From the IMG/VR virus record IMGVR_UViG_3300037455_000492: a DNA stretch of 64,000 nt; one strand, written 5' to 3'. This DNA comes from an uncultured virus (IMG/VR IMGVR_UViG_3300037455_000492) (Duplodnaviria > Heunggongvirae > Uroviricota > Caudoviricetes). The first letter of the stretch is position 1; each line of letters opens with the position of its first letter. This document shows positions 1 to 58,060 of this stretch, in pieces. The notes below the pieces were generated by a model. The model did not search any database. It had not been told where the DNA came from and worked only from the letters and a program-made list of their open reading frames with translations. A program made the position numbers and the translations under genes.

Positions 1-507
1 GGTTTGCAGGGTGAACAAGGAATCCAAGGTGTTCAAGGTGAACAAGGAATCCAAGGTGTTCAAGGTGTTCAAGGCTTGCAGGGCGAACAAGGAATCCAAG
101 GTGAACAAGGAATCCAAGGTGTTCAAGGTGAACAAGGAATCCAAGGTGAACAAGGAATCCAAGGTGAACAAGGAATCCAAGGTGTTCAAGGTGAACAAGG
201 AATCCAAGGTGTTCAAGGCTTGCAGGGCGAACAAGGAATCCAAGGTGTTCAAGGTGAACAAGGAATCCAAGGTGAACAAGGAATCCAAGGTGTTCAAGGT
301 GAACAAGGAATCCAAGGTGAACAAGGAATCCAAGGTGTTCAAGGTTTGCAGGGTGAACAAGGAATCCAAGGTGTTCAAGGTTTGCAGGGTGAACAAGGCA
401 CACAAGGAATCCAAGGCGTTCAAGGCTTGCAGGGTGAACAAGGCACACAAGGAATCCAAGGTGTTCAAGGCTTGCAGGGTGAACAAGGAATCCAAGGTGT
501 TCAAGGA
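1..507 (+). repeat. Tandem array of 9-bp units (ggtgaacaa, ggaatccaa, ggtgttcaa, ggcttgcag) encoding the collagen repeat
   Basis: Directly visible in the sequence. Confidence 0.95.
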
Positions 508-615
508 GCATTTGGACCAAACAGACAGTCGGATTGGAATCAAGATGACCAAACAGCAGAAGATTACATAAAAAATAAACCAAATACAACCTCTGTAATA
601 TTTAGAGAATGGTAA
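1..615 (+). CDS. Collagen-like (G-X-Q repeat) tail fibre protein, 5' truncated by the window edge
   Basis: Uninterrupted [12 protein letters not shown] triplets followed by QSDWNQ...DYIKNKP, a motif typical of Bacteroidetes phage fibres; the frame is open from base 1. Confidence 0.8.
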
Positions 616-3270: not shown

Positions 3271-3741
3271 ATGTCAGAAAAGAAAATAACAGATTTTACC
3301 ATAATTAGAAGTCTTACACTATTTGAAGTTGATGTTTACAGATTATTTGACAATGTGCCAAAGAAATTTAAATTTAATTTAATTGAACAAACAAAAAATC
3401 TTATAGGTTCTGTAATTGTATTGACGGTAAAGGCTATGGAAACCCCGCCGCTTGACAATTCATTGATTGCTGTAAAACGAAATTTGCTGATTGAAGCGCA
3501 GTCGGAATTGCACGCGGTTGAAGTTAGGTTATCAACTTTGAATGATTTGATGGGTATAAGCAATGAAGCGAAAGCAAGGCTTGACATATATTTGTATGAT
3601 ACATATAGAAATTTCTCACGTCTCATAAACTCATTTAATAGGAGACTAAATGTGTCAGACGTTCAAAACTGCGGTTTTGACGCAGAACCCGATAATATAA
3701 GGATGCCAAACTGCACATTGAAAGGAATATTGGATGTGTAG
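3271..3741 (+). CDS. avd: DGR accessory variability determinant (Avd-like four-helix bundle)
   Basis: 156-aa helical protein with PKKFKFNLIEQ motif, located between target and TR/RT. Confidence 0.8.
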   Translation: MSEKKITDFTIIRSLTLFEVDVYRLFDNVPKKFKFNLIEQTKNLIGSVIVLTVKAMETPPLDNSLIAVKRNLLIEAQSELHAVEVRLSTLNDLMGISNEAKARLDIYLYDTYRNFSRLINSFNRRLNVSDVQNCGFDAEPDNIRMPNCTLKGILDV

Positions 3742-5149
3742 TCAGTTCTCTATTGGCAAGCATTGGTCTGTTGCCCAGTATTCGAGTAACAACAGTTGGT
3801 TATACAACGGCAACAATGGTGAATTGAATAACAACAACAAGTACAACACTAACTCGGCCCGCGCGTTGGATTATAATATTTGGGATTACGCTGGACGTGA
3901 GGATTTTCTATTATTACTGTATGAATTTTATGATGCTTATTATGTATGCAGGACAAACAAAAGAAGCAAGAGTTCACAGTTGAATTTTGAATATCATTTT
4001 GCTGAATATTTTATACATCTTGTAATTTCCGTTTATACAAATGAATACATACCTTCAGAAGCAATAGCGTTTATTATTGACAATCCAAGGATTCGTGAAG
4101 TTATTGCAGCGTTTTTCGGTGACAGAATTGTGCAAACTTGGTATGTTTCAAAAATGTTGCCGCATCTTGAAAAAGATTGGTTTGACGATGATTCATATTC
4201 TTGCAGGGTTGGTAAAGGAGGATTGAGGGCTGCATTGAAATTAAAGGAATATATAAAAGAAGAAAGTTGCAATTATGCCTTTAAATGCTATGTGGTAAAA
4301 AGAGATTTACGTGCATTTTTTATGAGCATAGACCCGAAAATCCTTGAAGAAAAACTTGTTGATTTTATTTGGGAGCATTTTGATACAGATGAGAAATTGA
4401 GAAATATGCTATGTTATGTGACACGAATAATATATTGCGGATTTCCTCAAGAACATTGTATTATAAAGTCACACCCGCTTGCTTGGAAAAAACTTGAATA
4501 TCGTAAAAGTATGTTTGGAAAAGTGATAGGGCTTCCTATAGGCAACATAACAAGTCAAATGGCTGCTAACTTTATAACAACCTTTTATCTTGACATACTT
4601 CGTAAAATGGGTTATAAATTTGTTCATTATACTGATGATACGGCAATAGTGGTAAAAGATATTAAGAAATGGAATAATGATTCAAAAATAATTGAAAAAT
4701 ACATATCTGAAGAATTGCATTTAGAGTGGCATCCGCATAAAATATATTGTCAAGACATAAGCAAGGGTGTTGAATTTCTTGGATATAAAATAAGGTATGA
4801 CAGAATGCTTCCCTCGGACAGAATAGCACATAATTATATATGGACAACCGAATGTGCTGTTGAACGATATATGAATAAGACATTTGTGAACTATGCCGAC
4901 AAATTGCATTTTATGCAATCGTTTAACAGTTATGGCGGATTGTTGAAGTGGTGTAATTCACATAGATTAACGGAAAGGGCGGTGAATGCCATAAAAGAAT
5001 CACCAATAACAGATATATACGATATTGAATCGAATTATAAAATACAGATACGGAACAAAGAATCAAAAATGAATTATTATAAATATATGAACAAGACAAG
5101 AAAATCAAACTTGATAAAACATTCAAAGAAGTATGAAAAAGATTTCTGA
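3734..5149 (+). CDS. DGR reverse transcriptase (start uncertain; the TR lies in frame in the 5' end)
   Basis: PRIREVIAA.F.DRIVQ, SYSCRVGKG, DLRAFFMSID, GLPIGNITSQ, YTDD and GVEFLGY motifs. Confidence 0.95.
   Translation: MCSQFSIGKHWSVAQYSSNNSWLYNGNNGELNNNNKYNTNSARALDYNIWDYAGREDFLLLLYEFYDAYYVCRTNKRSKSSQLNFEYHFAEYFIHLVISVYTNEYIPSEAIAFIIDNPRIREVIAAFFGDRIVQTWYVSKMLPHLEKDWFDDDSYSCRVGKGGLRAALKLKEYIKEESCNYAFKCYVVKRDLRAFFMSIDPKILEEKLVDFIWEHFDTDEKLRNMLCYVTRIIYCGFPQEHCIIKSHPLAWKKLEYRKSMFGKVIGLPIGNITSQMAANFITTFYLDILRKMGYKFVHYTDDTAIVVKDIKKWNNDSKIIEKYISEELHLEWHPHKIYCQDISKGVEFLGYKIRYDRMLPSDRIAHNYIWTTECAVERYMNKTFVNYADKLHFMQSFNSYGGLLKWCNSHRLTERAVNAIKESPITDIYDIESNYKIQIRNKESKMNYYKYMNKTRKSNLIKHSKKYEKDF
3762..3873 (+). 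ncRNA. DGR template repeat (TR)
   Basis: AAC/AAT-rich copy of the VR with 11 AAY codons. Confidence 0.95.
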
Positions 5150-6697: not shown

Positions 6698-7438
6698 ATG
6701 GAACTGTATAACGGCGATTGCATAGATATAATGAAAGACATACCAAGCGGCAGCGTGGATATGGTGCTGTGTGATTTGCCATACGGCACTACACAGAACA
6801 AATGGGATGCCGTCATTCCGTTTGACTTGCTGTGGGAGCAGTACAACCGTGTGACAAAGGTATCAGCAGCCATTGTTCTGTTCGCGCAGGGTGTGTTCTA
6901 TGCAGACCTTGTTCACTCCAACAGAAAGAATTTTCGATACGACCTTGTGTGGGATAAAATGCTTAAAGGCGGGTTCTTGAACGCAAAGGTTATGCCGATG
7001 CGCATACACGAGCAGATTGCTGTGTTTTATAGAAAGAAACCCGTTTACAATCCGCAGAAGACAAAAGGCAAACCGAATCACACGAAAGGTACGGCTATAT
7101 TCACGAAAGGTGAGACCAACAACAACTACGGTAAATACAACCCCGTTGAAACTGACGTGAATGACGATATGAAATATCCGAAAACCATACTGTCGTTCCA
7201 AAAACCTCATCCGAGTGTTTCGGTTCATCCTACACAGAAGCCCGTTGAGTTGCTTGAATATCTCATAAGGACATTCACAAACGAGGGTGACACAGTGTTG
7301 GACAATACAATGGGTAGCGGCAGCACGGGTGTAGCCTGCGTGAATACTAATCGAAATTTTATAGGCATAGAGAAAGATACAAATTATTTTGAAATAGCGA
7401 AAAAGAGAATAGAAGAATCAAATAAAAAATTGTTCTGA
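6698..7438 (+). CDS. DNA methyltransferase, N6A/N4C beta class (copy 1)
   Basis: DLPY motif IV, HPTQKP, DNTMGSGSTG motif I. Confidence 0.93.
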   Translation: MELYNGDCIDIMKDIPSGSVDMVLCDLPYGTTQNKWDAVIPFDLLWEQYNRVTKVSAAIVLFAQGVFYADLVHSNRKNFRYDLVWDKMLKGGFLNAKVMPMRIHEQIAVFYRKKPVYNPQKTKGKPNHTKGTAIFTKGETNNNYGKYNPVETDVNDDMKYPKTILSFQKPHPSVSVHPTQKPVELLEYLIRTFTNEGDTVLDNTMGSGSTGVACVNTNRNFIGIEKDTNYFEIAKKRIEESNKKLF

Positions 7439-7439
7439 T

Positions 7440-8195
7440 ATGGTGAATTTGATGAAGGGCGATTGTCTTGAACTTATGAAAAGCATTCCGAGCGGGAGTG
7501 TTGATATGATACTGTGCGATTTGCCGTATGGTACTACAACCTGCGCTTGGGATAATGTCATACCGTTTGAGCCTTTGTGGGAAGAATATGAACGTTTGAT
7601 AAAAAGCAATGGTGCAATTGTACTGTTCGGTCAAGAACCGTTCAGTTCTATGCTTCGCGTGTCCAACATAAAACTTTACAAATATGATTGGATATGGAAC
7701 AAAACTATGTCCCCGAATTTTATGATGGCTAAATATGCGCCATTGAAAACAACAGAACTCATATCTGTTTTTTCAAAGGGCGGGATAAACCAAAACACTA
7801 AAAATAAAATGGTGTATTATCCGCAGGGTGTTGTGAAATGCGACAAGGATGTTGAATCAAAAGTGAAGTCTGACGGCGTGAATAGATATAACAAACTGTC
7901 AAACAAGCACAAGCAGACACAGACCAATTATCCGAAGAACGTATTGACATTTGGCGTTGAACGGGGTCTCCATCCGACACAGAAACCCGTGAAATTATTG
8001 GAATATCTGATACGGACATACACGCTTGAGGGTGAAATTGTTTTGGATAACACGATGGGCAGCGGCTCTACGGGTGTAGCCTGCGTGAAGTCAAACCGTG
8101 ATTTTATCGGTATTGAACTTGACGAAAACTATTTCAACATAGCAAAGGAAAGGATTGACAACACATTTGTCGAAAAGGAAAAGGCGTTATTCTAA
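7440..8195 (+). CDS. DNA methyltransferase, beta class (copy 2)
   Basis: DLPY, HPTQKP, DNTMGSGSTG. Confidence 0.93.
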   Translation: MVNLMKGDCLELMKSIPSGSVDMILCDLPYGTTTCAWDNVIPFEPLWEEYERLIKSNGAIVLFGQEPFSSMLRVSNIKLYKYDWIWNKTMSPNFMMAKYAPLKTTELISVFSKGGINQNTKNKMVYYPQGVVKCDKDVESKVKSDGVNRYNKLSNKHKQTQTNYPKNVLTFGVERGLHPTQKPVKLLEYLIRTYTLEGEIVLDNTMGSGSTGVACVKSNRDFIGIELDENYFNIAKERIDNTFVEKEKALF

Positions 8196-8938
8196 TGAAC
8201 GACATCAGACTATATAACGGGGATTGCCTTGAAGTTATGGCGGGTTTGGAAGAGCATAGCGTTGACTGCGTTATATGCGACCTTCCATATGGCATAACGA
8301 GTAACAAGTGGGATATTGTCATACCCTTTGACAAACTGTGGGAATCGTATGACAGAGTGTGCAAGGAAAACGCTATGATATGTTTGTTCGGCGGGCAACC
8401 GTTTTCGTCAATGCTTGTTATGTCGAACTTGAAGATGTTTCGTCACGAGTGGATTTGGATTAAGAACAGAGGAAGCAACTTCGCGAATACTGTGAGAGAG
8501 CCTATGAAAGAACACGAAAGCATATTGTGTTTCTCGAAAGGCAAATGGACTTACAACAAGCAGATGCAGGAGCGCACGGGCGGGGGTGCTGACCGTGTTA
8601 AGTACAGCATATCGTTTGACACTTCATCATCGAACTACCGTGACTTTGACAAAAAGGAAAACCTTGTGCTTACGGAGGAACGTGTGCCGTCATCATACCA
8701 AAAGTTCAATACGGAAGTTGGGTTGCACCCGACACAGAAACCCGTTGCGCTGCTTGAATATATGATACGGACATACACCAATGAGGGCGACACTGTAATG
8801 GACAATACGATGGGCAGCGGCTCTACGGGTGTAGCCTGCGCCAACACGGACAGAAATTTTATAGGCATAGAGAAAGATACTAATTATTTTAAAATAGCGA
8901 AAAAGAGAATAGAGGAATCAAATAAAAAATTGTTCTGA
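8195..8938 (+). CDS. DNA methyltransferase, beta class (copy 3)
   Basis: DLPY, HPTQKP, DNTMGSGSTG. Confidence 0.93.
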   Translation: MNDIRLYNGDCLEVMAGLEEHSVDCVICDLPYGITSNKWDIVIPFDKLWESYDRVCKENAMICLFGGQPFSSMLVMSNLKMFRHEWIWIKNRGSNFANTVREPMKEHESILCFSKGKWTYNKQMQERTGGGADRVKYSISFDTSSSNYRDFDKKENLVLTEERVPSSYQKFNTEVGLHPTQKPVALLEYMIRTYTNEGDTVMDNTMGSGSTGVACANTDRNFIGIEKDTNYFKIAKKRIEESNKKLF

Positions 8939-8951
8939 AATTAAATTTGAA

Positions 8952-10244
8952 CAGAATTATCCCTTTTAGTCTTGTAACAAATAAATAATTTAATGGAAAG
9001 AATGTACACATACAAATACAAGTTATATCCAAACAAAGAACAAGCAGCATACTTGTCAAAATTGTTTGGTTGCTGTCGGTTGGTGTACAACCATTTTCTA
9101 AACGAGAAACAGACACAGTACAAGGAAACCAAGTCAAGTGACAGTTACAATGTACAACAATACAAACTAACCCAACTTCGCAAAACCGAAGAATACGATT
9201 TCTTAAATGATATGCCCTTGCAAGTACTGCAAGCAAGTTTGAAAAATATGCACATTGCTTTTGAGAGATTTTACAAGCACAAGGGCGGCTACCCGAACTA
9301 CAAGTCAAAAAGGGATAAACAAGCGTTCAAGATATCACAACCAAGGACATTTCACATTAAAGACAACAAGTTGCATATCCCCAAACTTAAATCGGGTATA
9401 AAATGTAAGGTGTCAAAGGAGTTGGTTGGTGAACCTTGTTTTGCAACTGTCACAAAGTCTAAATCAGATAAATATTATGTAAGCATAACAGTCAAACAAG
9501 ATAATTATCAACCATATCCGCACACCAACAAATCGGTTGGTTTGGACTTGGGCATAAAGGACTTGGTGATTACAAGCGATGGTGTCAAGTATCCGAGACT
9601 CAAACAGCAAATCAAACAGTTAAAGCGTGAACTAAAACACAATCAAAGACATTTGTCAAGAAAGCAACACGGTAGCAAGAGATACGAAAAACAAGTACTC
9701 AAGTGCAACCGTATATACGAAAAAATTACAAATGTCAAAACAGACTACATCCACAAGATAACAACCCAATTGGTTAAAACTTATGACATTATTAAAGTTG
9801 AAGACCTTAACATCAAGGGAATGGTCAAGAACCGTAAACTTGCTGAAGTCATCAACGAATGCAATTGGGGTGAGTTTGTCAAGACGTTGACTTATAAATG
9901 CAATTGGAATGGCAAGCAACTTGTAAAGGTTGACAGATTTTATCCATCAAGTCAGTTGTGTAGCGGATGTGGATGTATAAATAAAAAAGTTAAAAATTTA
10001 TCCATCAGACAATGGACTTGTGAATGTTGTGGCACGTTACACGACAGAGATGTGAATGCCGCCATTAACATTTTAAGATACAACTCGGCGAGGAACACCG
10101 AGTACAGTCGTGGAGGGGTGGACAAACCAAACGGAACAACTTGTTTGGCAAGTGACTGTTTGGACTCCGCAGAAGCCATAGGCAAAGAAGCGACTATTGA
10201 ACTTGAAGTCTTATAAATATTACAAACTAAAAGGGATAATTCCG
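8952..10244 (+). mobile_element. TIR-bounded cassette carrying tnpB
   Basis: Left TIR cagaattatcccttttagtcttgta 8952-8976; right TIR tacaaactaaaagggataattccg 10221-10244; TSD degenerate (aaatttga vs aaatatgc, offset by one base). Confidence 0.85.
8993..10216 (+). CDS. tnpB: TnpB RNA-guided endonuclease
   Basis: YKYKLYPNKEQ...FGCCR.VYN N-terminus; RuvC GLDLGIK, VEDL, DRDVNAAINI; CxxC...CxxC zinc finger. Confidence 0.95.
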   Translation: MERMYTYKYKLYPNKEQAAYLSKLFGCCRLVYNHFLNEKQTQYKETKSSDSYNVQQYKLTQLRKTEEYDFLNDMPLQVLQASLKNMHIAFERFYKHKGGYPNYKSKRDKQAFKISQPRTFHIKDNKLHIPKLKSGIKCKVSKELVGEPCFATVTKSKSDKYYVSITVKQDNYQPYPHTNKSVGLDLGIKDLVITSDGVKYPRLKQQIKQLKRELKHNQRHLSRKQHGSKRYEKQVLKCNRIYEKITNVKTDYIHKITTQLVKTYDIIKVEDLNIKGMVKNRKLAEVINECNWGEFVKTLTYKCNWNGKQLVKVDRFYPSSQLCSGCGCINKKVKNLSIRQWTCECCGTLHDRDVNAAINILRYNSARNTEYSRGGVDKPNGTTCLASDCLDSAEAIGKEATIELEVL

Positions 10245-10272
10245 AAATATGCAAACAAAAAACTTTTCTGAA

Positions 10273-11223
10273 ATGGATGGGGTGAAACTATACAACGGGG
10301 ACTGCCTCGAAGTTATGAACGAGATACCCGATAACAGCGTTAATTTAATACTTTGTGACCTCCCATACGGCACAACGGGTATAAAATGGGACGTTAAGAT
10401 ACCGTTTGACAAACTGTGGGAACACTACAACCGTGTACTGAAGCCAAACGGTACGGTTCTGCTTTTCGGAAGCGAGCCGTTTGCTTCTATGGTTCGTTAC
10501 AGCAATCCGTCTATGTACAAATACGATTGGGTTTGGGAGAAAAACAACTGCGGCAATTTCCAATTGGTGAACAAGCAGCCTATGAAGATACACGAGACAA
10601 TATCCGTGTTTTATGAGATTCCGAGACATTACGCCTTTTCGGAAATAATCGTTTCCAATATGAAGCGTCTTGGCTTGGGTTACAACGAGGTCAGTATGCT
10701 GTTCCCGTCACGAAACGGTTTACAGACGGGTTGGCTGTCCAACAAGATAAGCGGAAAGCAGTTGCCTACAAGAGAGCAATGGAAGCGTTTGTGTAATTTG
10801 TTCGGTATTGAAGATGAATATGACAAACTCGCAGTCAAGAACACTATAACCTATAATATGGTTCTGAAAGACGTTGAGAGAACATTGTCAAACAAAGGCA
10901 AAGGCGGCAGGCTCGGACATCTCGGCTCGCAGAACAAGCGCAGCGAGTATAAGCAGACAAAGAGCGGTTATCCAAAAAGCATATTGAAGTTCAACCGAGA
11001 GACGGGATTTCACCCTACGCAGAAGCCCGTTTCGCTGCTTGAATTTTTGGTTAAAACCCACACCAACGAGGGTGATGTTGTTCTTGACAACTGTATGGGC
11101 AGCGGTTCTACGGGTGTAGCCTGCGTGAATACGGGCAGGAACTTTGTCGGCATTGAAATTGAGAAAAAGTATTTCGAGATTGCCGAAGAACGCATTTTGG
11201 ATTCCGAAAAGAAACTGTTTTAG
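10273..11223 (+). CDS. DNA methyltransferase, beta class (copy 4) with inserted HTH-like segment
   Basis: DLPY, HPTQKP, DNCMGSGSTG; about 70 extra aa in the variable region; ATG 10273 preferred by alignment with the paralogs. Confidence 0.9.
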   Translation: MDGVKLYNGDCLEVMNEIPDNSVNLILCDLPYGTTGIKWDVKIPFDKLWEHYNRVLKPNGTVLLFGSEPFASMVRYSNPSMYKYDWVWEKNNCGNFQLVNKQPMKIHETISVFYEIPRHYAFSEIIVSNMKRLGLGYNEVSMLFPSRNGLQTGWLSNKISGKQLPTREQWKRLCNLFGIEDEYDKLAVKNTITYNMVLKDVERTLSNKGKGGRLGHLGSQNKRSEYKQTKSGYPKSILKFNRETGFHPTQKPVSLLEFLVKTHTNEGDVVLDNCMGSGSTGVACVNTGRNFVGIEIEKKYFEIAEERILDSEKKLF

Positions 11224-11251
11224 TTGTGTTAAAAAACAAAAAATTATTCTG

Positions 11252-12187
11252 ATGGTAAGAAACATTATAATTGATGGCGAATTGCCAATAATATGTTCCG
11301 TTCCCGCCATTGAGGGTGTCGCTTATATGCTCAAGGAGCATTTCAACGACAAACCAAACAGACAGTTCACTGTGAACACAAGCATAGAGGATTACGATGA
11401 GTTGGAGAAAAACGGCGAACTCACGGACTGTATGGTCTATTACAATATGGAGCATAAGTGCAAGATTATGTGGAACGGACAGTTGCCGTTTTGCGGTTCG
11501 TATTGGACGGAGAAAAACAATGAAATGTTCGCCAAGTATGATGAGATATGGGATTTCCAAATTGAGAACTACGAGTATTTCAAGTACCACGGTCTCGGAG
11601 ACAAATTCAAATTCAAGCCGCTACGGTACACAAGTTTCTATGAATGGTACAGAACAAGCGAGAAACCGCAGTTCGACATTCAGTTGGAGTGCGTTATTGA
11701 TTCCGATATTAGGGCGGTTGCGCTGCGTAATCTGACCGATATTCCTATGGCTGTTGACGATAACGGAAACTATGTGATTACGGGTGAGCGTATGCGAATC
11801 AACCTCACAAACACAATGGAAAGCGGGGTGAAACTGTTGGCAAAGAACAACTGCCGATATGGTATTGACATTCCGAGATATGACGTGCTTTGCACGATAA
11901 ACACGTTCCGAATCTATGAGTATGTCTGTATGAACAAGCCCGTTATTGTATGGGATAAATACAGCATCACATCAAAGCGTTATTTTAACGACTTGTGCAT
12001 TTACACGAAAGACATTACTGCGTACAACATAAACAACATAATTCAGAACGAGCCGAAGTCCGATGTTGCCGACACATTCAAGCAGATGACATTCAATGAT
12101 TCCGACTATAACGAATACATACTTGACATAGTGCGCGACCATAAAGATAGGACGGGTGAGACTATTCCCGATTCAGTATTGCAATGA
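11252..12187 (+). CDS. Hypothetical protein, possibly GT-B glycosyltransferase-like
   Basis: YYNMEH, DEIWDF..ENY and FRIYEY..MNKPVI segments resemble viral glycosyltransferase-like proteins; weak call. Confidence 0.4.
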   Translation: MVRNIIIDGELPIICSVPAIEGVAYMLKEHFNDKPNRQFTVNTSIEDYDELEKNGELTDCMVYYNMEHKCKIMWNGQLPFCGSYWTEKNNEMFAKYDEIWDFQIENYEYFKYHGLGDKFKFKPLRYTSFYEWYRTSEKPQFDIQLECVIDSDIRAVALRNLTDIPMAVDDNGNYVITGERMRINLTNTMESGVKLLAKNNCRYGIDIPRYDVLCTINTFRIYEYVCMNKPVIVWDKYSITSKRYFNDLCIYTKDITAYNINNIIQNEPKSDVADTFKQMTFNDSDYNEYILDIVRDHKDRTGETIPDSVLQ

Positions 12188-12990
12188 TAGACGAGACAAA
12201 CATAGAACTTCTGCACGGTGATTGCCTTGAACTTATGAAAGGCATACCCGACAACAGCATAGACCTTGTGCTGTGCGATTTGCCATACGGCACGACCGCC
12301 TGCGCTTGGGATGCCGTCATACCATTCGAGCCGCTTTGGGAACAATACAAAAGGGTTACAAAAGACAATTCACCGATTGTGTTGTTCAGCACACAGCCGT
12401 TTACAACAATGCTCATTTACTCGAACATAAAATGGTTCAGAGAGGAAATCATTTGGCTGAAAAACCGTGGCGGCAGCGGACTGCATTCGGACAAACGTCA
12501 CATAAAGACCCACGAGAATATTGTGGTTTTCGCCAAAGGCTCGTACACGTTCAACCCGCAGAAATGGGAAGTCGGCGACAAGAAGTTCCTCGTACACAGA
12601 AAGGTGTTCGACTACGGGTATGCGAAGAACAACATATACGGCAATATCCGTGACATTAAAAAACCCGATGACGGCACACGGAATCCGATAAGTGTCGTTT
12701 CATACGAAGTGCCGTTTTCCCCTTCAAAAAGCAGGGAGTACGACAGCAGCGTTGACATAAGATACCATCCGACACAGAAGCCCGTTGCGCTGCTTGAATA
12801 CCTTATACGGACATACAGCAACGATGGCAACATTGTGTTGGACAATACAATGGGTTGCGGCAGCACTGGTGTAGCCTGCGCCAACACGGGAAGGGGTTTC
12901 ATCGGAATCGAAATGGATTCGGGTTATTGCGACATAGCGGAGAAACGAATAAACGAGGCATTGAAACACAAAACCAAAACATTGTTCTGA
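12184..12990 (+). CDS. DNA methyltransferase, beta class (copy 5)
   Basis: DLPY, HPTQKP, DNTMGCGSTG. Confidence 0.93.
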   Translation: MIDETNIELLHGDCLELMKGIPDNSIDLVLCDLPYGTTACAWDAVIPFEPLWEQYKRVTKDNSPIVLFSTQPFTTMLIYSNIKWFREEIIWLKNRGGSGLHSDKRHIKTHENIVVFAKGSYTFNPQKWEVGDKKFLVHRKVFDYGYAKNNIYGNIRDIKKPDDGTRNPISVVSYEVPFSPSKSREYDSSVDIRYHPTQKPVALLEYLIRTYSNDGNIVLDNTMGCGSTGVACANTGRGFIGIEMDSGYCDIAEKRINEALKHKTKTLF

Positions 12991-29602: not shown

Positions 29603-29897
29603 TGTAATTATACCTTTTAGTCTTGTGGGTTTCCTATTTTAATGTAAAACGTGAACGTATTGCCAAATGTTTCCGTTCTGATTTCCCATTCATTCATTTC
29701 GTTGAATTTCATTTTTTCCCAATCATCGTCTTCGGGTGTATGCCAAAAAAATTTTCCATCGTTGCGTACCTCAACTTCAAGTACATTTCCAACTTTCGCA
29801 CGGTTATCATTCCAAACCATTTCGTTGATAGTTTTTATATGATTCATATTCACTATATATTTTCACTATTTATACAAGACTAAAATGGACAATTCCG
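29603..29897 (-). mobile_element. TIR cassette with cargo ORF 29617-29853
   Basis: TIRs 29603-29626 and 29873-29897; TSD tttttatt at 29595-29602 and 29898-29905. Confidence 0.88.
29617..29853 (-). CDS. Small late protein (HIKTINE N-terminus), cassette cargo
   Basis: Ends QD* inside the TIR; TATAAATA at 29867-29874 (-). Confidence 0.65.
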   Translation of the reverse strand: MNMNHIKTINEMVWNDNRAKVGNVLEVEVRNDGKFFWHTPEDDDWEKMKFNEMNEWEIRTETFGNTFTFYIKIGNPQD

Positions 29898-31623: not shown

Positions 31624-32930
31624 AATTTTTGTGTTTTAGTATTTATATTCAGTAAACTTGTTGGAATTTTTATTATATTATGTTGTTGATAATTTTGTTG
31701 ATAACTTTTTCAGAAAAAATATTTGCGGTATAAAAATTTTTGTATTTTTGCAGCGTAATCAAAAACCAACGGTTATGGAATTCAAGTCAAAGAAAGCATT
31801 GGAGAATGCAATCAGAGAATCAATCACGACAAACCCGCAACGCGCCATTGACGCTATGATGCGAATCTACGAGTATCAAACGGCTGACGAGCAGGCGTGT
31901 GGTTTGGTGAGAAATCTCAACGGCGTAGGATTCGCCTGCATTGATTCGGCAGTTCTCTCATCGTTCTGCGAGAAATACAAAAGATACGGATACCTTTCCG
32001 ACAAGCAGATTGAGTATCTGTTCAAGAAAATCGGAAAATACGCCAAGCAACTCACAGCCCAAGCAATCGACAAGGGTCTTTATGTGAAAAAAGACAACGT
32101 GTGGGTTGTGAACAAGGCGGCGGTCAAGAAATAAATTGTCTAACATTAAAAACATCTGTTATGAGTCTTGAGAAATACGACAACAACATTGTCAAGAAAG
32201 GCGAAATGGTTTACGGCAATTCGCCGAAGACAGAAGTTCTCGCTGACGGAACTTACAAGGGATTCAAAGTGTGCATTCTCTCATACGGCACACACCCCTG
32301 CTGTTATTTCAAACTGAACGATGGCGACAAGTTCATAGGCACGAACTATGACGATATTCCATTGGACTGTCACGGCGGAATCACGTTCTTCCAAAAGACG
32401 GACAGCAACGCCCCGATGGGCGATGGGTATTGGCTCGGTTGGGACTACGGTCACTACGGCGATGCCTACGGGACTATGATGCCAGGCAGGACGTACACGA
32501 CCGATTTACTGATTGCCGACTTGAAGCAAGCCATCGATGAATACATTTGTCTTTAATACCGAACTGTTATGGAAACTTTCATTGTTGTATTGGTACTTAT
32601 TTTTCTTGTTGTTTTGGGTTTCGTGTTGGAAGCCATTGATGAACGCAAGTACATCAAAAGACGCAAGGAACTGCTAAAGGTGGGCAGAACCATCGTATGG
32701 TACGCCTGCATTAACAAAGAGTTTGACGATTGGAAAGAAATATGTTCCGCCGAAATCGTTGACTGCCGTGACGAATACTTCAAAATCCGTTACAGCAGCG
32801 GTGACTATGAATACGTTAAATACACGTTCTTCGGCAACTATGACGATAAGGTTGAAGTGTATGACGGGAACGACCTCATTTTTTCAACGGGATTTGAACT
32901 TTGCGACACCTATCACAAAAAGGATTAGTT

Positions 32931-33350
32931 ATGAATATTGTTGGCGCATTTGAGCGGGCTTTCAGAGAGAAAGCGGAACACGGATGGGAAAAGATATATG
33001 TCCTTGTCGATGTTCACGACACCATTATGGTCGGCGAAAAACCCGAAAGGGACAACCCGAAATGGTACGCGCACGCAATCGAAGCATTGCGTATTATGAC
33101 GGAGCGCGAGGACATTTGTCTGATTATGTGGACGGGCGCATACCCGTTGCGAATCAACAAATACAAAAGACTGCTTGCCGAAATGGGTGTTCGGTTCGAT
33201 TATGAGAACGAGAACCCAGAGGCGGAGAGCAATGACTTCTATTGCAGCGACAGCAAGGTTTACTTCAATGTCGGCACAGACGACAGATTCGGATTTGACG
33301 CGGAAAGCGATTGGAAAGACGTAGTTGATTTTTTACAAAAATCCAAATGA
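32931..33350 (+). CDS. HAD-superfamily-like protein
   Basis: VLVDVHDTI, LIMWT, DDR motifs. Confidence 0.6.
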   Translation: MNIVGAFERAFREKAEHGWEKIYVLVDVHDTIMVGEKPERDNPKWYAHAIEALRIMTEREDICLIMWTGAYPLRINKYKRLLAEMGVRFDYENENPEAESNDFYCSDSKVYFNVGTDDRFGFDAESDWKDVVDFLQKSK

Positions 33351-33351
33351 T

Positions 33352-34261
33352 ATGACAAAAGAAGAGTTATTGAATTACGCGATTGACCTGCGGTCTGATG
33401 ACAAACAAAAACGGGAGGACGCTTCAAAGGCTATACTTGCGCATTGTGAGCCTCTGTTCAAAAAATGGTATGAGGAAATCAACAAATACGGGGATTACAA
33501 CATATCCGATTTTGAAGGATACCTGCCGAATATGGGCTATATCGAAAGTGTGGACTATTGCCCGAAATGCAGGGAGTTCTGCTTTCTCTATATATGCGAT
33601 GAAAACAAAGTGCGTGACAATATCATTGTCGATTTTGACGTGTTGAGTGACGAAAAGTTCATCGAAAAGCAGGCACGCGAGTATTGGGAACACGCTGTGT
33701 CCTGCCTCGAAGAGGACATTGTTCGGAAAAAGAAAGCCATAGCCTATATGGAAAAGGCACTTGAAGAACTGAAGAAAAAAGAACCGAAAAAACTATAATA
33801 TGGAAAAGAAACAACTTAAAGAATGGGTCGATAAACTGAATTCCGACTCAAAGTCCATATCAAACAACGCGAAGAAAATCGTAATCAAGGAGTGCGAGCC
33901 TCGCCTTAAAAGATGGTATAACTGCATCCGCAAGTACGGCGACTTCAACATATCGGATGATGACGAGTACCTTGCCAACAGAGGCGGCATATCCGATGTG
34001 TGGTTCAACAAGGAGACAAACGAATTGTCGTTCCTATACACGGACGGTTGCAGGGGCGACCATATCGAGGACGATATAAATGTTGACCTTGACGAATTCC
34101 TTGATGACAATTTCTTCGCCAATCGGGAATACACCGCTTGGACAAAAGCGGTCACGTTAGCCGAGAAGTCGCTTGGATTCTACAAATCAAAAGTCTCCGA
34201 AACGGAGAAACTGTTGGAAAAACTGAACACAATCAAACCGAAACCAATCTATAAAAAATAA
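33352..34261 (+). CDS. Two tandem paralogous hypothetical proteins (33352-33798, 33800-34261)
   Basis: Shared CEP..K.WY..I.KYGD.NISD...YL.N.G.I. Confidence 0.65.
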
Positions 34262-35284
34262 GATTATGAATTTAAGAGAATTGAAAATCGGAAACTATGT
34301 CGTATCGAGGGGCGAAGTCACAAGAATAATCGGTGTTCGCACCGACACCGACAACCCGACCGTTCTGTGCGAGAACTGCGATGTGTGGGTTGGCGATGTG
34401 GGAGGCATCAGTCTTACGGAAGACATACTCACGCGCCTTGGATTCAGTATGTCTGACGACAACACATACGGGCTTATGCGCACGGTGTTCTATCCATTCG
34501 GCAAACTGAACGTGTGCGAGTACGAGGATTATTTGGTTGTCGATTTGGCTATGCCGCAATCGTGCATAGTCAAGCACCAATACATCAAAGAACACGAGAA
34601 CTACCCGCCGTCTTTGCTTAACAAGTCATTCGAGGGTGAGATTGTGTATTTGCACGAGTTGCAGAATGTTATGGAAACCGTTGGATGCATCAAAAAACTT
34701 GAACTCGATGTAAACGGCATCGAAGTCGAACACAAAAAAGAATAGTTATGAAAGAAGAAACAATGAATATCAAGGTGTATGTCGCCAATGACGGAAAGCA
34801 GTTCCTTGACAAAGAAGAGTGTGAAAAACACGAGAACACAATCAATAACATCCGTTATTTCGTGGTTAAGCACACGCCAGATTTGACCGAAACGGGTTCG
34901 TTCAGAGGTATCAGCGTGGTCGCCGTGTATTCGGAAAACGGATATCACAGAAACATTGTCGAAAGATGGTGCGTTGACGAAATGAAGTATGCGATTCTCG
35001 GCTACTCCGTGCAGGGCTACGGTTTCCAACCGCACTTTGAAATCATCGACAGCAAGTCCGATGACGATTTTGCGAAATGCTGTTGGAATAACTTTGAGTA
35101 CAACAAGGCATTGGACTGCTCAAACATTAGGTACAAGAGCAAGGCGTTTCTCTCGCCGAAACGGGTTGACGGATTTCCGAACAATTTCGACTATATGGCA
35201 AAATGGTTCAAAAACTAATTTTTTCTTGAACGTTTTTCTTGGATTTTTATTATATTGTATTGTAAAGTTCTTTGAATAACCAAT

Positions 35285-41331: not shown

Positions 41332-41643
41332 CGGAATTATCCCTTTTAGTCTTGTAAAAATGATTATGGAAAACAACAATAAGACGGCAAAGGAAATATG
41401 TAACTGCGAATACTGTAGAAGCAATGGCACATTGTTATGTGATATGATTGGTGGTTGTGTTGCGTATCGTACCGTATTACAACTCTTGTATTATAAACAT
41501 AAGCGTCCTTCGGAAGAACTAATCAACAAAATTTGTGGGGTATTTTTTGATGCACAAGAATATATTAAACGAGACAACCTTGATGCGTTTGAGTGGATTC
41601 ACAAACAATTAAAAACACTACAAGACTAAAAGGGATAATTCCG
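41332..41643 (+). mobile_element. TIR cassette with cargo ORF 41360-41629
   Basis: Perfect 25-bp TIRs at 41332-41356 and 41619-41643; TSD taaacatt at 41324-41331 and 41644-41651. Confidence 0.95.
41360..41629 (+). CDS. Small Cys-rich protein, cassette cargo
   Basis: CNCEYC...C....C; ends QD* inside the right TIR. Confidence 0.6.
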   Translation: MIMENNNKTAKEICNCEYCRSNGTLLCDMIGGCVAYRTVLQLLYYKHKRPSEELINKICGVFFDAQEYIKRDNLDAFEWIHKQLKTLQD

Positions 41644-52139: not shown

Positions 52140-53792
52140 ATGAAAGAAGACAAGTCAATTATATGTGAAGTGATAATCAAGGCTGTCGGCGATGCCGCAG
52201 ACGAACTCGGATACGATGCCTATATGGTTGGCGGGTATGTCCGTGACAAGATTATGAAGCGCGAATCCGAAGACATCGACTTCGTGTGCGTGGGCGGCGA
52301 AACCCCCGATGTACGTGCGGGAATTGCCGTAGCCAACCGCGCAGCGGAGAAACTCGGTGTCGGCAAGGTCGAGGAGTTCAAGAATTTCGGCACTGCGCAT
52401 TTCGTCTATGACGGCGTTGAGGCGGAATTTGTCGGCGCACGCAGGGAGAGTTACAGCCGTGGTAGCCGCAAGCCCGTTGTCGAGAACGGCACGCTCGAAG
52501 ACGACCTCAACAGACGCGACCTCACCATCAACGCAATCGCGTACTGCGTGAACGGAAACAAGCGCGGTTACATCGACAAGTTTGACGGCAAGGATGATAT
52601 CAAGCACGGTATCATCCGCACCCCGCTCGACCCGAACATCACATTCTCTGATGACCCGCTCCGTATGCTTCGAGCAATCCGTTTCGCAGTCAAGTTCGGT
52701 TTCAACATAGAGTATCGTACACTGAAGGGGATTGAAAAAAACGCACGCCGAATTTCGATTATCTCCGCAGAGAGAATCAGCGCGGAACTGAACAAAATCC
52801 TTATGAGCGACCAACCGTCACGCGGCATCAAACTGCTCAACAGCACGGGTCTGCTGAAACTTATCCTACCGAGCGTAGCAGCCTTGGACAGAGTGGAAAC
52901 CAAGAACGGCGTTTCGCACAAAAACAATTTCTTCCACACACTCGGCGTTCTGTCCTATGTGTGCAGCCACGGCGCGAGCCTCAATGTTCGTTGGGCTGCG
53001 CTGCTCCACGACATCGGCAAGACAAAAACGCAGAAGTTCGAGAACGGCACTTGGACGTTCCGCTACCACGAGGTAGAGGGCGCGAAGATGGTAGCCAGAA
53101 TCTTCCACCAACTGAAAATGCCTCTTGACGATATGAAGCACGTTCAGAAATTGGTCGAACTGCATATGCGCCCGCAGGCAATCGTTGAGGAAGTCACCGA
53201 TTCCGCAATCCGCAGGCTTATGTTCGATGCGGGCGATGACCTCGAAGACCTTATGCTTCTGTGTATGGGCGATGTCACATCGAAGAATGACGAAAAGGTC
53301 AAGAAAATCCGCGCAGGGTTCGAGCATCTGAAAGAGAAGTTCATCGACCTTGAGGAAAGAGACCACATCAGAAACTTCCAACCGCCCGTGAACGGTGACG
53401 AGATTATGGAGATGCTGCACTTGGAGCCAGGTCGTATGGTGGGTATCGTCAAGGAGAATATCAAGAACGCAATCCTTGACGGCGAACTTGAAAACGACCA
53501 CGACAAAGTTGCCGCGTACATTATGCAGAAATACACTTCCACCAACACCATCCGCGAGGATTCGGAGAAGAAAGAACCCGTCAACTCCGTGTGCGTCCAA
53601 AAAAATCCTTTGTCAATGGAGGAGAAGTGCAGCACGGTCAAACGCTACATTGAAGAGCGTATGAACGAACTGTGGGAGAAAATCCCCGATGCGCACGATG
53701 TGGAGAACGACAATATCACAACCAAGGATGCCATCGTTCTCGGCAGGTTTATGGAACTCGAACAACTTGAAAATTTCATTGAAAAACTGTAA
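52140..53792 (+). CDS. cca: CCA-adding tRNA nucleotidyltransferase with HD domain
   Basis: VGGYVRD, DIDF, RRDLTINA, DDPLRMLRAIRF, LLHDIGK. Confidence 0.9.
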   Translation: MKEDKSIICEVIIKAVGDAADELGYDAYMVGGYVRDKIMKRESEDIDFVCVGGETPDVRAGIAVANRAAEKLGVGKVEEFKNFGTAHFVYDGVEAEFVGARRESYSRGSRKPVVENGTLEDDLNRRDLTINAIAYCVNGNKRGYIDKFDGKDDIKHGIIRTPLDPNITFSDDPLRMLRAIRFAVKFGFNIEYRTLKGIEKNARRISIISAERISAELNKILMSDQPSRGIKLLNSTGLLKLILPSVAALDRVETKNGVSHKNNFFHTLGVLSYVCSHGASLNVRWAALLHDIGKTKTQKFENGTWTFRYHEVEGAKMVARIFHQLKMPLDDMKHVQKLVELHMRPQAIVEEVTDSAIRRLMFDAGDDLEDLMLLCMGDVTSKNDEKVKKIRAGFEHLKEKFIDLEERDHIRNFQPPVNGDEIMEMLHLEPGRMVGIVKENIKNAILDGELENDHDKVAAYIMQKYTSTNTIREDSEKKEPVNSVCVQKNPLSMEEKCSTVKRYIEERMNELWEKIPDAHDVENDNITTKDAIVLGRFMELEQLENFIEKL

Positions 53793-54073
53793 GATATGAA
53801 ACTCACAATCATTCATAACGGAGAGGAATTCTCCATTGAGTCAAAGCGCGGAAAGGTCAGCAACATCGTCCAAAGCAATCTTGACGAGGATTATATCAAA
53901 TTGTCGTTCCCGCACACAATCAGCAGCGCGATAATCAACCTGCAACAAGGTCTGCGCAAAGGCGACAAATGCGTCATCGAATCCGATAACGGAACGTTTG
54001 AAGGCGAATGGCATTGCCCATCGAGCATTGACGGAAATCCAGTGATTAAACTAACAACCAAAAGATAATTAGT

Positions 54074-54694
54074 ATGAAACCTTATGTCTATTTAGCGGGA
54101 CAAATTACAAAAAATTGGTGGCGAAATGCGCTTACCGATATGGAGTATATGAATGTAAATGAAACAAGAACTCCATTTGTCAATGTGTATAATGGAAACA
54201 AGGATGATTATTTTTATTCAACTTATGATTGCGGAAATTTTATCGTAACTGGACCGCACGCCGTTGGATGTGACCATCAATGTTATCACGATTTTTTGCA
54301 CGCGGCAAACGGATATTGCCTTGGAAGTGGTGACGTATTTGTTACCAAAAAAGAAATATGCGATGCTTGCTGTGACCAAATAAAAAGGGCTGATTTATTG
54401 TTTGCTTATATCGAAAGCGAGGACGCATTTGGCACTTTTTCTGAAATCGGTGTTGCGAGGGGGTTTGGCAAGTACATACATATTCTATTCCAAACAAAGA
54501 AACTCGCGCAAAAACTTTGGTTTTTGTCAGTAATGGCTGACGAATTCAGCATACAAGACGGCGAGAATGTGCCAGAAATAAGAAAAGCATTCCAAAAATG
54601 CTTGGCTGATTACGACACAATGAAAATAGAAGAAATGTGTAAAAAAGCCGAATTCAATGTGGCACAAAAAGAAAAAAGCAAGAAAAACAAATAA
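54074..54694 (+). CDS. Second nucleoside deoxyribosyltransferase-like protein
   Basis: VYLAGQI, IKRADLLFA, GTFSEIGVA...GK. Confidence 0.65.
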   Translation: MKPYVYLAGQITKNWWRNALTDMEYMNVNETRTPFVNVYNGNKDDYFYSTYDCGNFIVTGPHAVGCDHQCYHDFLHAANGYCLGSGDVFVTKKEICDACCDQIKRADLLFAYIESEDAFGTFSEIGVARGFGKYIHILFQTKKLAQKLWFLSVMADEFSIQDGENVPEIRKAFQKCLADYDTMKIEEMCKKAEFNVAQKEKSKKNK

Positions 54695-54714
54695 ATCATC
54701 TAATATAATCAATT

Positions 54715-55566
54715 ATGGCAAGCAAAGACAGTTTGGGCGACCGTATGAAAGAGAACTACGAAGCCCGATTCAAATTCAAATTATTGAGACGGACACCCGT
54801 CATCATCCGCATTGACGGCAAGGCGTTCCACAGTTTCACCCGTGGTTTCAACCGCCCGTTTGACCGTGTTCTGTCAAACGCTATGGACAGAACTATGAAA
54901 TCGCTGTGCAGCAGCATCCAAGGATGCGTGTTCGGATACACGCAGTCTGACGAAATCACAATCGTTATGCACGACTACGAGAGCCTCAACAGTTGCGCGT
55001 GGTTCGACAACGAAGTGCAGAAGATTTGCTCCATCGCCGCTTCTATGGCTACCTGCCAATTCAACAAGGCATTCGCCGATGAGGTCGCCATTTTCCGTCA
55101 GAAGGTTTATTTCACCAACATCAATGAGGACGATTCATTGAAGAAAGACTACTACATTGATGACATCGAGACGGCGAAGAAACTGCACGAGAAATACGCG
55201 AGCAGGCTGCATACAGCAATGTTTGACGCACGCTGTTTCAACATACCCATTGCCGAGGTAGCGAACTGCGTCCTTTGGCGGCAGCAGGATGCCACCCGCA
55301 ACAGCATCGAGATGGCGGGCAGGTACTATTTCAGCCATTCGGAACTCCACAAGAAAAATTCAAGCAACATCCAAGATATGCTGATGGAGAAATTCGGCGT
55401 TAATTGGAACGACTACCCCGTGCGGTACAAGCGCGGCTGTGCCTGCTACAAGCGGTGGGTCGGCGAGAAACCGCTTGGCAAAAGCGAATGGTACGTGGAC
55501 TACGATATGCCAATCATCTCCAAGGACAGAAATTATATCGAGCAGTACATTTTGCCGAAAGATTAA
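54715..55566 (+). CDS. thg1: tRNA(His) guanylyltransferase Thg1-like (3'-5' polymerase)
   Basis: RIDGKAFHSFT, YTQSDEI, FDAR, WRQQDATRNS. Confidence 0.9.
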   Translation: MASKDSLGDRMKENYEARFKFKLLRRTPVIIRIDGKAFHSFTRGFNRPFDRVLSNAMDRTMKSLCSSIQGCVFGYTQSDEITIVMHDYESLNSCAWFDNEVQKICSIAASMATCQFNKAFADEVAIFRQKVYFTNINEDDSLKKDYYIDDIETAKKLHEKYASRLHTAMFDARCFNIPIAEVANCVLWRQQDATRNSIEMAGRYYFSHSELHKKNSSNIQDMLMEKFGVNWNDYPVRYKRGCACYKRWVGEKPLGKSEWYVDYDMPIISKDRNYIEQYILPKD

Positions 55567-57643: not shown

Positions 57644-58060
57644 CGAAATTACCCCCTTTAATCTTGTAAACAATAGAAACAAATAGTATGACAAGGCGAG
57701 AATTGGAAAATATGCAATGTGTACATAAGAAAATGCAGTTCGGCAAATATAAGGGAATGTGTATTCTTGATGTAATTGACAAGGATGCCTCTTATATCGT
57801 ATGGTGCATAAAAAATGTGAAAGGATTTGAACTTGACGAAAATTTAGTTCACGATATGCTTGCCCAATATGAACGTCACCATCGGAATTTGCAAAATGAC
57901 ACACCGCAAGTTTTACATCTTATGAAAACCTATGGTATGCACGCAAACGAGGCAATTGACTTCATTGACAATAACGAAATGCCCGAACATTTCTGATTAT
58001 GAGACTTTGTAAACACAATTTATAACTGTCATTTTTTACAAGACTAAAGAGACAATTCCG
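57644..58060 (+). mobile_element. TIR cassette with cargo ORF 57688-57996
   Basis: TIRs 57644-57668 and 58037-58060; TSD ataatttt at 57636-57643 and 58061-58068. Confidence 0.9.
57688..57996 (+). CDS. DUF3820/ExoX C-terminal-like small protein, cassette cargo
   Basis: MQFGKYKG...D..Y..W motif. Confidence 0.65.
   Translation: MTRRELENMQCVHKKMQFGKYKGMCILDVIDKDASYIVWCIKNVKGFELDENLVHDMLAQYERHHRNLQNDTPQVLHLMKTYGMHANEAIDFIDNNEMPEHF

Follow-up and report, generated by a model that had tools for sequence, protein, structure and literature searches.

The stretch of DNA analyzed here, referred to as the window, is the 64,000-nucleotide record IMGVR_UViG_3300037455_000492 of an uncultured virus in IMG/VR, and the phage it belongs to is large, tailed and derived from ruminant (cattle) gut samples. 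A tnpB gene enclosed by two terminal inverted repeats (TIRs) forms an element of 1293 bp at positions 8952-10244; five methyltransferase genes stand in tandem there, with the element between the third and the fourth. Its parts are given below; omega-RNA denotes the guide RNA of TnpB.

8952-8976, plus strand: left TIR, 25 bp, CAGAATTATCCCTTTTAGTCTTGTA, one mismatch to the family consensus
8993-10216, plus strand: tnpB, 407 aa, with RuvC residues D185, E270 and D353 and the zinc finger intact
10084-10195, plus strand: omega-RNA-like scaffold within the 3' end of tnpB, from the consensus fold of 14 relatives
10196-10244, plus strand: tail from the scaffold to the element tip, predicted to fold as a hairpin of the tnpB 3' end with the inner half of the right TIR
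10220-10244, minus strand: right TIR, 25 bp, TTACAAACTAAAAGGGATAATTCCG, four mismatches to the consensus in an ungapped comparison
10245-10264, plus strand: candidate guide-encoding flank, at its presumed position

The consensus of the TIR family is CGGAATTATCCCTTTTAGTCTTGTA, and the four mismatches of the right TIR can be read as one missing and one changed base. The ATG of tnpB is located 16 nt past the left TIR and the stop codon 4 nt short of the right TIR, so that the close bounding of the gene described in an initial annotation of the window was confirmed by the coordinates. No target-site duplication (TSD) was found at this copy, the flanks AATTTGAA and AAATATGC being identical at only 3 of 8 positions. 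A variant without 7+1 bases between the tnpB stop codon and the right TIR (10214-10223) was seen at the identical insertion site in runs X22 and X5; the variable piece before the right TIR was polymorphic within one locus in these other samples.

The 407-aa protein matched the Pfam families OrfB_IS605 (2.1e-24), Cas12f1-like_TNB (3e-24) and HTH_OrfB_IS605 (2.7e-18). Its HTH/REC, OrfB_IS605 and zinc-ribbon TNB domains scored 65.6, 86.5 and 85.4 bits, each above the Pfam cut-off, and the NCBIfam model guided_TnpB gave 322 bits (cut-off 100). The ISDra2 TnpB structures 8bf8/8h1j were matched over residues 6-363 with an E value of 5.4e-75. D185, E270, D353 and both CxxC pairs of the CxxC...CxxC finger were invariant in an alignment of five sequences (the window protein and four relatives), in agreement with the intact active site and zinc finger annotated before, and the three acidic residues fell in conserved blocks when aligned to an ISDra2-like PDB chain. 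With 407 aa, ISDra2 TnpB as closest solved relative and a phage context, the protein is not a Fanzor.

The TIR is not restricted to the tnpB element. Its 17-nt core occurred six times in the window at up to three mismatches, where 0.31 occurrences were expected and 0 of 100 shuffled sequences reached six, and a relaxed scan revealed a fourth, more diverged TIR pair. The three sister cassettes, which had been annotated initially as having clean 8-bp TSDs and were all recovered with them, are as follows.

29603-29897, no strand: cassette of 295 bp, perfect 8-bp TSD TTTTTATT, 78-aa open reading frame (ORF) on the minus strand
41332-41643, no strand: cassette of 312 bp, perfect 25-bp TIRs, perfect 8-bp TSD TAAACATT, 89-aa ORF on the plus strand
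57644-58060, no strand: cassette of 417 bp, diverged TIRs, perfect 8-bp TSD ATAATTTT

No Y1, serine or DDE transposase was detected in the window by comparison of 43 ORFs with PHROGs and 73 ORFs with Pfam and by tblastn with an IS1595 transposase; the lack of tnpA noticed earlier is thereby borne out. With no transposase of its own, the window contains four elements that are all non-autonomous members of the IS1595 family, to which the ends were assigned as follows. Scanning viral contigs with the 17-nt TIR core gave 24 loci, and scanning metagenomes with the TIR gave at least 129. A 387-kb phage contig was found to contain a perfect TIR pair 3.39 kb apart, with the TSD ATTTTAAA, enclosing a 319-aa protein which is a DDE transposase of the IS1595 family (Pfam DDE_Tnp_IS1595, 4.9e-33; NCBIfam transpos_IS1595, 181.5 bits, cut-off 75). 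The three other ORFs of this 3.39-kb element had no Pfam match. By tblastn the transposase was found in 18 metagenome loci among the matches listed, at 52-100% identity, and seven of these 18 have a nearly full-length transposase that starts about 45-110 nt from the TIR. Across window, viral and metagenome loci the TIRs were 25 bp long with 0-4 mismatches to the consensus. Perfect 8/8 TSDs were observed for 16 of 30 evaluable distinct TIR pairs, a number that includes one spurious internal pair (8952-9323), and a 7/8 TSD for one more. IS1595 members, as collected in ISfinder, generate an 8-bp TSD, and some of them carry passenger genes. The combination of TIRs, 8-bp TSDs and an enclosed transposase marks an IS1595-family element, and the ends belong to a DDE transposon of this family. 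The proposal of the initial annotation that a DDE-type element carries tnpB in a phage is thus supported and the family is named. With 3288 homologues at E <=1e-20 the transposase family is a large one, and a 93%-identical homologue from a Bacteroidales metagenome-assembled genome (MAG) bears the name IS1595 family transposase. The TIR was rare in bacterial genomes: when 401 genomes were sampled from the order to which one Bacteroidales MAG belongs, 4 contained it. Five phage records with TIRs had 1-10 copies each, and one of them, the 387-kb record, encodes the transposase.

Two features of the cassette genes were seen along the way. Cargo ORFs often enter the TIR and use its TAA (..CAAGACTAAAAGGG) as stop codon, so that the proteins end in ..QD, as at window positions 41627-41632 and 29617-29622 and at loci L022 and L003. 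Otherwise different cargo proteins share the N-terminal sequence M(x)HIKR(I/V/L)NEM (window 29617-29853, minus strand; L001, L006, L007, L008 and L017).

Cassettes with these TIRs carry many unrelated genes, and tnpB recurs among them. Close relatives of the window TnpB were 63-68% identical to it, and all 11 close relatives with visible ends have these TIRs. In viral contigs both TIRs are present at L026-L029 and L031, L030 has the right TIR only, and L032 is cut by the contig end; metagenome copies complete with TIRs were L230, L221, L254 and L189 among the matches listed. Perfect TSDs flank three of ten complete tnpB copies (L003, L022 and L230: AGTGATTT, TATTAAAT and AAAGAAAT), so the search proposed beforehand for other TIR-bounded tnpB copies with 8-bp TSDs in related phages was successful. 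The next-nearest TnpBs had at most 50% identity and lack these TIRs. Best matches in species-representative bacterial genomes were 46-50% identical, and tnpB of the TIR clade was found only in viral and metagenome contigs. In a FastTree tree of 121 proteins the 11 TIR-bounded TnpBs formed one group with a support of 100 and a long stem, nested in a 43-row clade consisting entirely of viral-contig proteins, among phage TnpBs whose right ends are of the ordinary IS605 kind; the window copy was the most basal member of the TIR-bounded clade. The ratio of nonsynonymous to synonymous substitutions (dN/dS) within the clade was 0.056-0.114 at dS values of 0.46-1.9 (eight computable pairs; two window pairs were saturated), and over this dS span the TIRs differ by 0-4 of 25 bases. 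The TnpBs of the clade are thus under purifying selection. The single supported clade, the low dN/dS and the near-invariant TIRs point to one old capture of tnpB, after which protein and ends alike were under selection. At L221 (1699-1810) a second TIR, preceded by a short omega-RNA 3' fragment, lies 88 bp from the tnpB cassette and is a solo end or the remnant of another copy.

What was lost and what was kept after the capture can be seen by comparison with the relatives, 153 loci (L033-L185). Among these, 42 distinct sequences end in ..GAAGCCC, a hairpin and GGGTAGTTCAC, followed by unrelated flank. The right-end hairpin covaries and has a CTTTAG loop. In two solo copies, L039 and L044, the corresponding left end lies about 135 nt upstream of where the aligned gene starts, and the flanks of these left ends had no common target-adjacent motif (TAM). 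The hairpin was missing from 14/14 distinct 3' regions of the TIR clade. The left side of the clade has neither room nor motif for an IS605 left end, since the ATG follows the TIR after 16 nt (about 38-43 nt in sister copies), as had been claimed for the window copy. Ordinary IS605 ends inside the TIRs, which had been named as the observation that would speak for a simple nested insertion, are thus absent from the clade even though the nearest relatives have them. The window element is not of the IS200/IS605 type: it has no right-end hairpin, a Y1 (HUH) TnpA was not found among the window ORFs, and TIRs and, in sister copies, TSDs are present. The locus shows which IS605 parts are dispensable, namely the left end and the right-end hairpin, and that the scaffold was retained. 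L039 also contains a 35-nt inverted repeat of the host phage (1017-1051 and 2405-2439) surrounding the canonical IS605-type tnpB element, which looks as if inserted into a palindrome.

The retained scaffold consists of a hairpin (10084-10102), the motif ..GTCGTGGAG, a long-range stem of AGTCGT (10106-11) with GCGACT (10190-95), and inner stems. The consensus fold has 28 pairs with 97.7% of cells paired, compared with 27-52% in slid controls. Compensatory changes were found in 11 pairs, and 0 of 500 shuffles reached this number. Both pairings pointed out in the initial annotation, ctcgg/ccgag and agtcg/cgact, are in this fold. A scan of 8800-10400 against Rfam gave four chance-level matches (E 1.2-9.4) and no omega-RNA family.

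The tail (10196-10244) occupies the place of the IS605 right-end hairpin of the relatives. Counted from the long-range stem it measures 35-52 nt in the TIR clade; in the relatives the right-end hairpin and tip, which precede the guide, together take up about 40 nt. The tail of the clade is composed of ATTGAAC, a variable piece of 3-20 nt with the stop codon, and the 25-nt TIR. In minimum-energy folds the last tnpB codons pair with the invariant inner half of the TIR in one of two registers, depending on subtype (CUUUUA:UAAAAG or CUU..AGUCU:AGACU..AAG). The TIR tip GGGATAATTCCG resembles the IS605 tip, and a covariance model built from 36 canonical relatives aligned both tips in one of six printed alignments. 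Mini-elements that retain only scaffold and TIR were found at L016 (327 bp) and L218 (619 bp, perfect TSD), and as the remnant beside L221. The dinucleotide TA is located just 5' of the TSD in 4/4 omega-bearing elements with perfect TSDs and in 4/12 other cassettes, a hint of a TAM from a small post hoc count in which the orientation of the 12 is arbitrary. The candidate guides, whether taken from the flank or from the tail before the TIR, had no second match within the window. Overall, these observations lean towards a guide that lies in the flank beyond the TIR rather than in the TIR itself.

One RNA-library contig spans the stretch 10040-10300; further contigs extend over the left flank and the 5' part of tnpB. 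In four runs no credible joint across the element was present, uncovered parts being uninformative; an apparent skip from 8840 to 10399 was set aside, as its two sides amount to just 21-24 letters and fall in methyltransferase sequence that is repeated. In the goat-gut run X5 the summed contig depth was 78-101 at 10044-10235, as against 13-47 elsewhere in tnpB and about 9-17 in the flanks. The excess is consistent with extra omega-only copies, contig depth being a poor measure.

The methyltransferase genes around the element encode five tandem N6_N4 DNA methyltransferase paralogues (246, 251, 247, 324 and 268 aa; window 6698-12990), with stop and start codons that touch or overlap, and a 347-aa ORF without known family overlaps the end of the fourth gene. 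Similarity to the GenBank phage collection was limited to the methyltransferase genes (60-80%), and no relative of the element was found there. By direct reading, two related gene ends border the element.

8920-8941, plus strand: upstream methyltransferase gene, 3' end reading ..NKKLF, stop
10255-10276, plus strand: diverged second methyltransferase 3' end (NKKLF, stop, in a different frame)

They form a diverged 22-nt direct repeat that brackets the element 10 nt outside each TIR. We infer that a rearrangement between tandem methyltransferase paralogues took place after the insertion, which would also account for the missing TSD of the window copy.

A further stretch resembling the TIR is present inside tnpB.

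9299-9318, plus strand: TIR-like stretch coding for YKSKRDK, 18/20 match to the right-end repeat

It was rejected as a third working end. The match is probably coding-driven because the sister genes score 13-15/20 at the equivalent codons (13-18/20 over all seven copies), and no 372-bp element was found elsewhere. The TIR likeness of these codons exceeds random expectation.

Other genes of the window include a reverse transcriptase (PHROG 1.6e-45, RVT_1 3.5e-11) 3 kb downstream of a collagen-like tail-fibre gene (window 4-612 and 3734-5146); this may be a diversity-generating retroelement. Eight successive plus-strand ORFs of 119-159 aa without Pfam match, at 31658-35215, may be paralogues arrayed in tandem. 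Also encoded, at 52140-55563, are a CCA-adding enzyme (2.1e-72) and a Thg1-like tRNA-His guanylyltransferase (7.4e-87), which point to putative functions in tRNA repair or maturation.

It is highly probable that tnpB is a passenger of a non-autonomous IS1595-family element, captured once and moved by a transposase encoded elsewhere. An IS1595 transposase such as that of the 3.39-kb autonomous copy would act in trans, bind the 25-bp TIRs and move the cassettes by cut-and-paste, and insertion would make 8-bp duplications at AT-rich sites. An ISDra2-like phage TnpB would have been captured once as cargo; the IS605 left end and right-end hairpin, needed by the Y1 transposase, would have been lost, and the protein and the omega-RNA scaffold kept under selection. 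The omega-RNA would run through the right TIR, the inner half of which would pair with the tnpB 3' end and so replace the lost hairpin. The guide would be the 16-20 nt of flank beyond the TIR, that is, the right TSD copy and neighbouring DNA. Each insertion would then program TnpB against the equivalent site in genomes without the insert, and omega-only mini-elements would add guides in trans. During co-infection the empty allele would be cut and repaired from the occupied one, whereby the cassette and nearby markers would be copied (non-restorative homing). The statement as a whole, passenger and mechanism together, is evenly balanced, and the derivation of the guide from the flank is put at or just below that level. 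Non-restorative homing between co-infecting phages would be the most likely use, with a chance slightly short of even; it is favoured because it agrees with a guide taken up from the flank, with the setting in a phage and with what is known of the behaviour of phage homing endonucleases, as outlined in part of a 2026 review (PMC13565253). The widest formulation is tentative and somewhat doubtful, namely that in these cassettes of IS1595 (Merlin-like DDE) type, hosted by a lineage of gut phages, a bacterial-type TnpB rebuilt the omega-RNA 3' end from the TIR, so that every transposition, whether of a tnpB cassette or an omega-only mini-element, would write a guide for the empty site, which would amount to an RNA-guided homing drive acting between co-infecting phages.

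Several observations weigh against this proposal. Perfect TSDs were rarer in tnpB copies (3/10) than in other cassettes, and a transposase and tnpB within one TIR pair were not seen. The window copy, with decayed ends and no TSD, may no longer move. Two scans of viral contigs with the right TSD and flank of L003 and L022 yielded occupied sites only and no empty-site allele. The tail hairpins fold weakly, at -2 to -10 kcal/mol compared with -9 to -21 kcal/mol in the relatives. With the covariance model, ten clade matches were weak (E 0.056-0.63; E 8 for the window's own) and the 3' half of the clade was aligned inconsistently, so the model does not settle the boundary between scaffold and guide. 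The two metatranscriptome runs consist of contigs, which are blind to RNA ends. As the TSD is variable, a fixed TAM would need to fall 5' of it by chance. Finally, cut-and-paste leaves a break at the donor site, and OMEGA, short for obligate mobile element-guided activity, is therefore held to add little to DDE elements in the corresponding part of PMC13565253.

The strongest competing explanation accepts the same capture but regards tnpB as ordinary cargo that benefits the phage, as a nuclease against competitors or host DNA or as a regulator, with no role in spread. The many unrelated cargo genes of the cassettes are in line with this, as are the strong selection on the TnpB protein, the restriction of the clade to viral and metagenome contigs (best identity in species-representative bacterial genomes 46-50%), and a window copy that looks immobile but is intact. 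Against it stand the omega scaffold and its position relative to the element tip, conserved in 14/14 copies, and the mini-elements, which retain exactly this part; that is what a guide taken from the flank would require. This explanation is considered unlikely, although it deserves to be taken seriously.

Another possibility, again with the same capture, is a fixed guide. The scaffold would end at ..GCGACTATTGAAC and the next 16-20 nt, made up of the last tnpB codons and the inner TIR, would be an invariant guide, by which TnpB would target TIR-bearing DNA (other copies or rival elements) or its own ends and not empty sites. ATTGAAC resembles the terminal TAGTTCAC of the relatives at 5/8 positions, which is also where some alignments of the covariance model end. 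The 20 nt past GAAC are almost all TIR in the 'TTT' subtype, cassette left ends come close to a match with ..TTTTTACAAGACTAAAAGGG on the opposite strand, and the equivalent tnpB codons resemble the TIR in 7/7 copies (13-18/20). However, GAAC and the TIR are separated by anything between 3 and 20 nt, so that the TAM-proximal seed would differ for each copy and match that copy alone. Moreover, a fixed guide leaves the omega-only mini-elements without purpose, and in the structural comparison with the relatives the scaffold continues for about 40 nt past the long-range stem. A fixed guide is improbable but still to be reckoned with.

A nested insertion would place a normal IS200/IS605 tnpB element, its ends still working, within a mini-element of IS1595; it is largely refuted and can be given very little weight. 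In phage contigs the nearest relatives are of the normal IS605 type and the association may well have begun in this way, but the spacing of 16 nt (about 38-43 nt in sisters) between left TIR and ATG contains no left-end motif, unlike L039 and L044, the hairpin with the CTTTAG loop is missing in 14/14 copies, and no tnpA is present in the window. Equally improbable are phage regulatory or recombination repeats between which cassettes shuffle by recombination: a clean TSD is missing from roughly half of the TIR pairs and the diverged 22-nt repeat of methyltransferase 3' ends flanks the window tnpB copy, but in 16/30 pairs unrelated AT-rich sequences are duplicated perfectly over 8 bp, many loci have an IS1595 DDE transposase directly inside these ends, and the ends are near-invariant while the cargo diverges (dS 0.46-1.9).

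If the widest formulation is true, the cassettes would be a prokaryotic counterpart of Fanzor1 without a TSD-based TAM. A guide that starts beyond the TIR would mean that the end of a foreign transposon can be taken over by an omega-RNA and that phages gain a reprogrammable homing nuclease. The benefit of OMEGA to DDE cut-and-paste transposons is an open point, for which the locus is a compact natural test case: one capture, about a dozen diverged and selected tnpB copies with invariant ends, transposase-bearing partners, omega-only mini-elements, and canonical IS605 sister elements in similar phages.

Compared with IS1595 insertion sequences, the family described here has the same DDE_Tnp_IS1595 transposase with an N-terminal zinc ribbon, the same short TIRs and the same 8-bp TSD, but its copies are mostly non-autonomous single-gene cassettes in phage genomes. 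The protein family, catalytic residues, zinc finger, first omega-RNA hairpin, ..GTGGAG motif and long-range stem are shared with IS200/IS605 elements of the ISDra2 type. In contrast to these, the TIR clade has no TnpA, left end, right-end hairpin or ..GGGTAGTTCAC tip, and it has 25-bp TIRs and, in sister copies, 8-bp TSDs.

TnpB in DDE transposons is already known. The premise of the initial annotation, that DDE linkage is typical of eukaryotic Fanzor1, was outdated, as DDE-associated TnpB of prokaryotes was published in 2023: the section of Altae-Tran et al. (PNAS) on the subject describes six such branches with inverted terminal repeats, reports solo TnpB mobilised in trans, and names IS630 as DDE family (PMC10691335). 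The review passages on the subject name ISL2, IS630 and IS1031 (PMC13565253). Neither an IS1595-linked TnpB nor a phage cassette system of this type is named in that section of PMC10691335 or in the review passages, IS1595 being present only in a profile list of the supplementary information of the former, and Fig. 4 or the additional files of that paper could hold such a case; at the level of titles and abstracts, the literature on TnpB with IS1595 contained nothing on this association. The carriage by IS1595 in phage cassettes is probably new, and the swap of transposon is real but not unprecedented. As in the DDE branches of Altae-Tran et al., as far as their text describes them, TnpB is located inside an inverted-repeat transposon with its 3' end near the tip, and solo TnpB has the ends of transposase-bearing copies and is read as moved in trans. 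The IS1595 carrier, the phage location, the 8-bp TSDs, the many other cargo genes and the omega-only mini-elements set the present family apart from those branches.

Fanzor1, in the accounts given in portions of Bao & Jurka 2013 (PMC3627910) and PMC13565253, is likewise a TnpB-family passenger of elements with TIRs and TSDs that belong to unrelated transposases, with a guide RNA at the element end. The present protein differs in being a compact, ISDra2-like TnpB of bacterial type (E 5.4e-75 to 8bf8) in a bacteriophage. Fanzor1 is described in the review section concerned as reading the 5' TSD as part of its TAM (PMC13565253), which cannot work here because the 8-bp TSD is variable. The free-standing homing endonucleases of T-even phages (SegF etc., from the passage on them in PMC13565253) resemble the proposed system in the cutting of the gene-less allele of a co-infecting phage and in the copying of the gene, by repair, together with flanking markers. 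Unlike in these enzymes, recognition by the phage TnpB would be RNA-guided and reprogrammed with each transposition.

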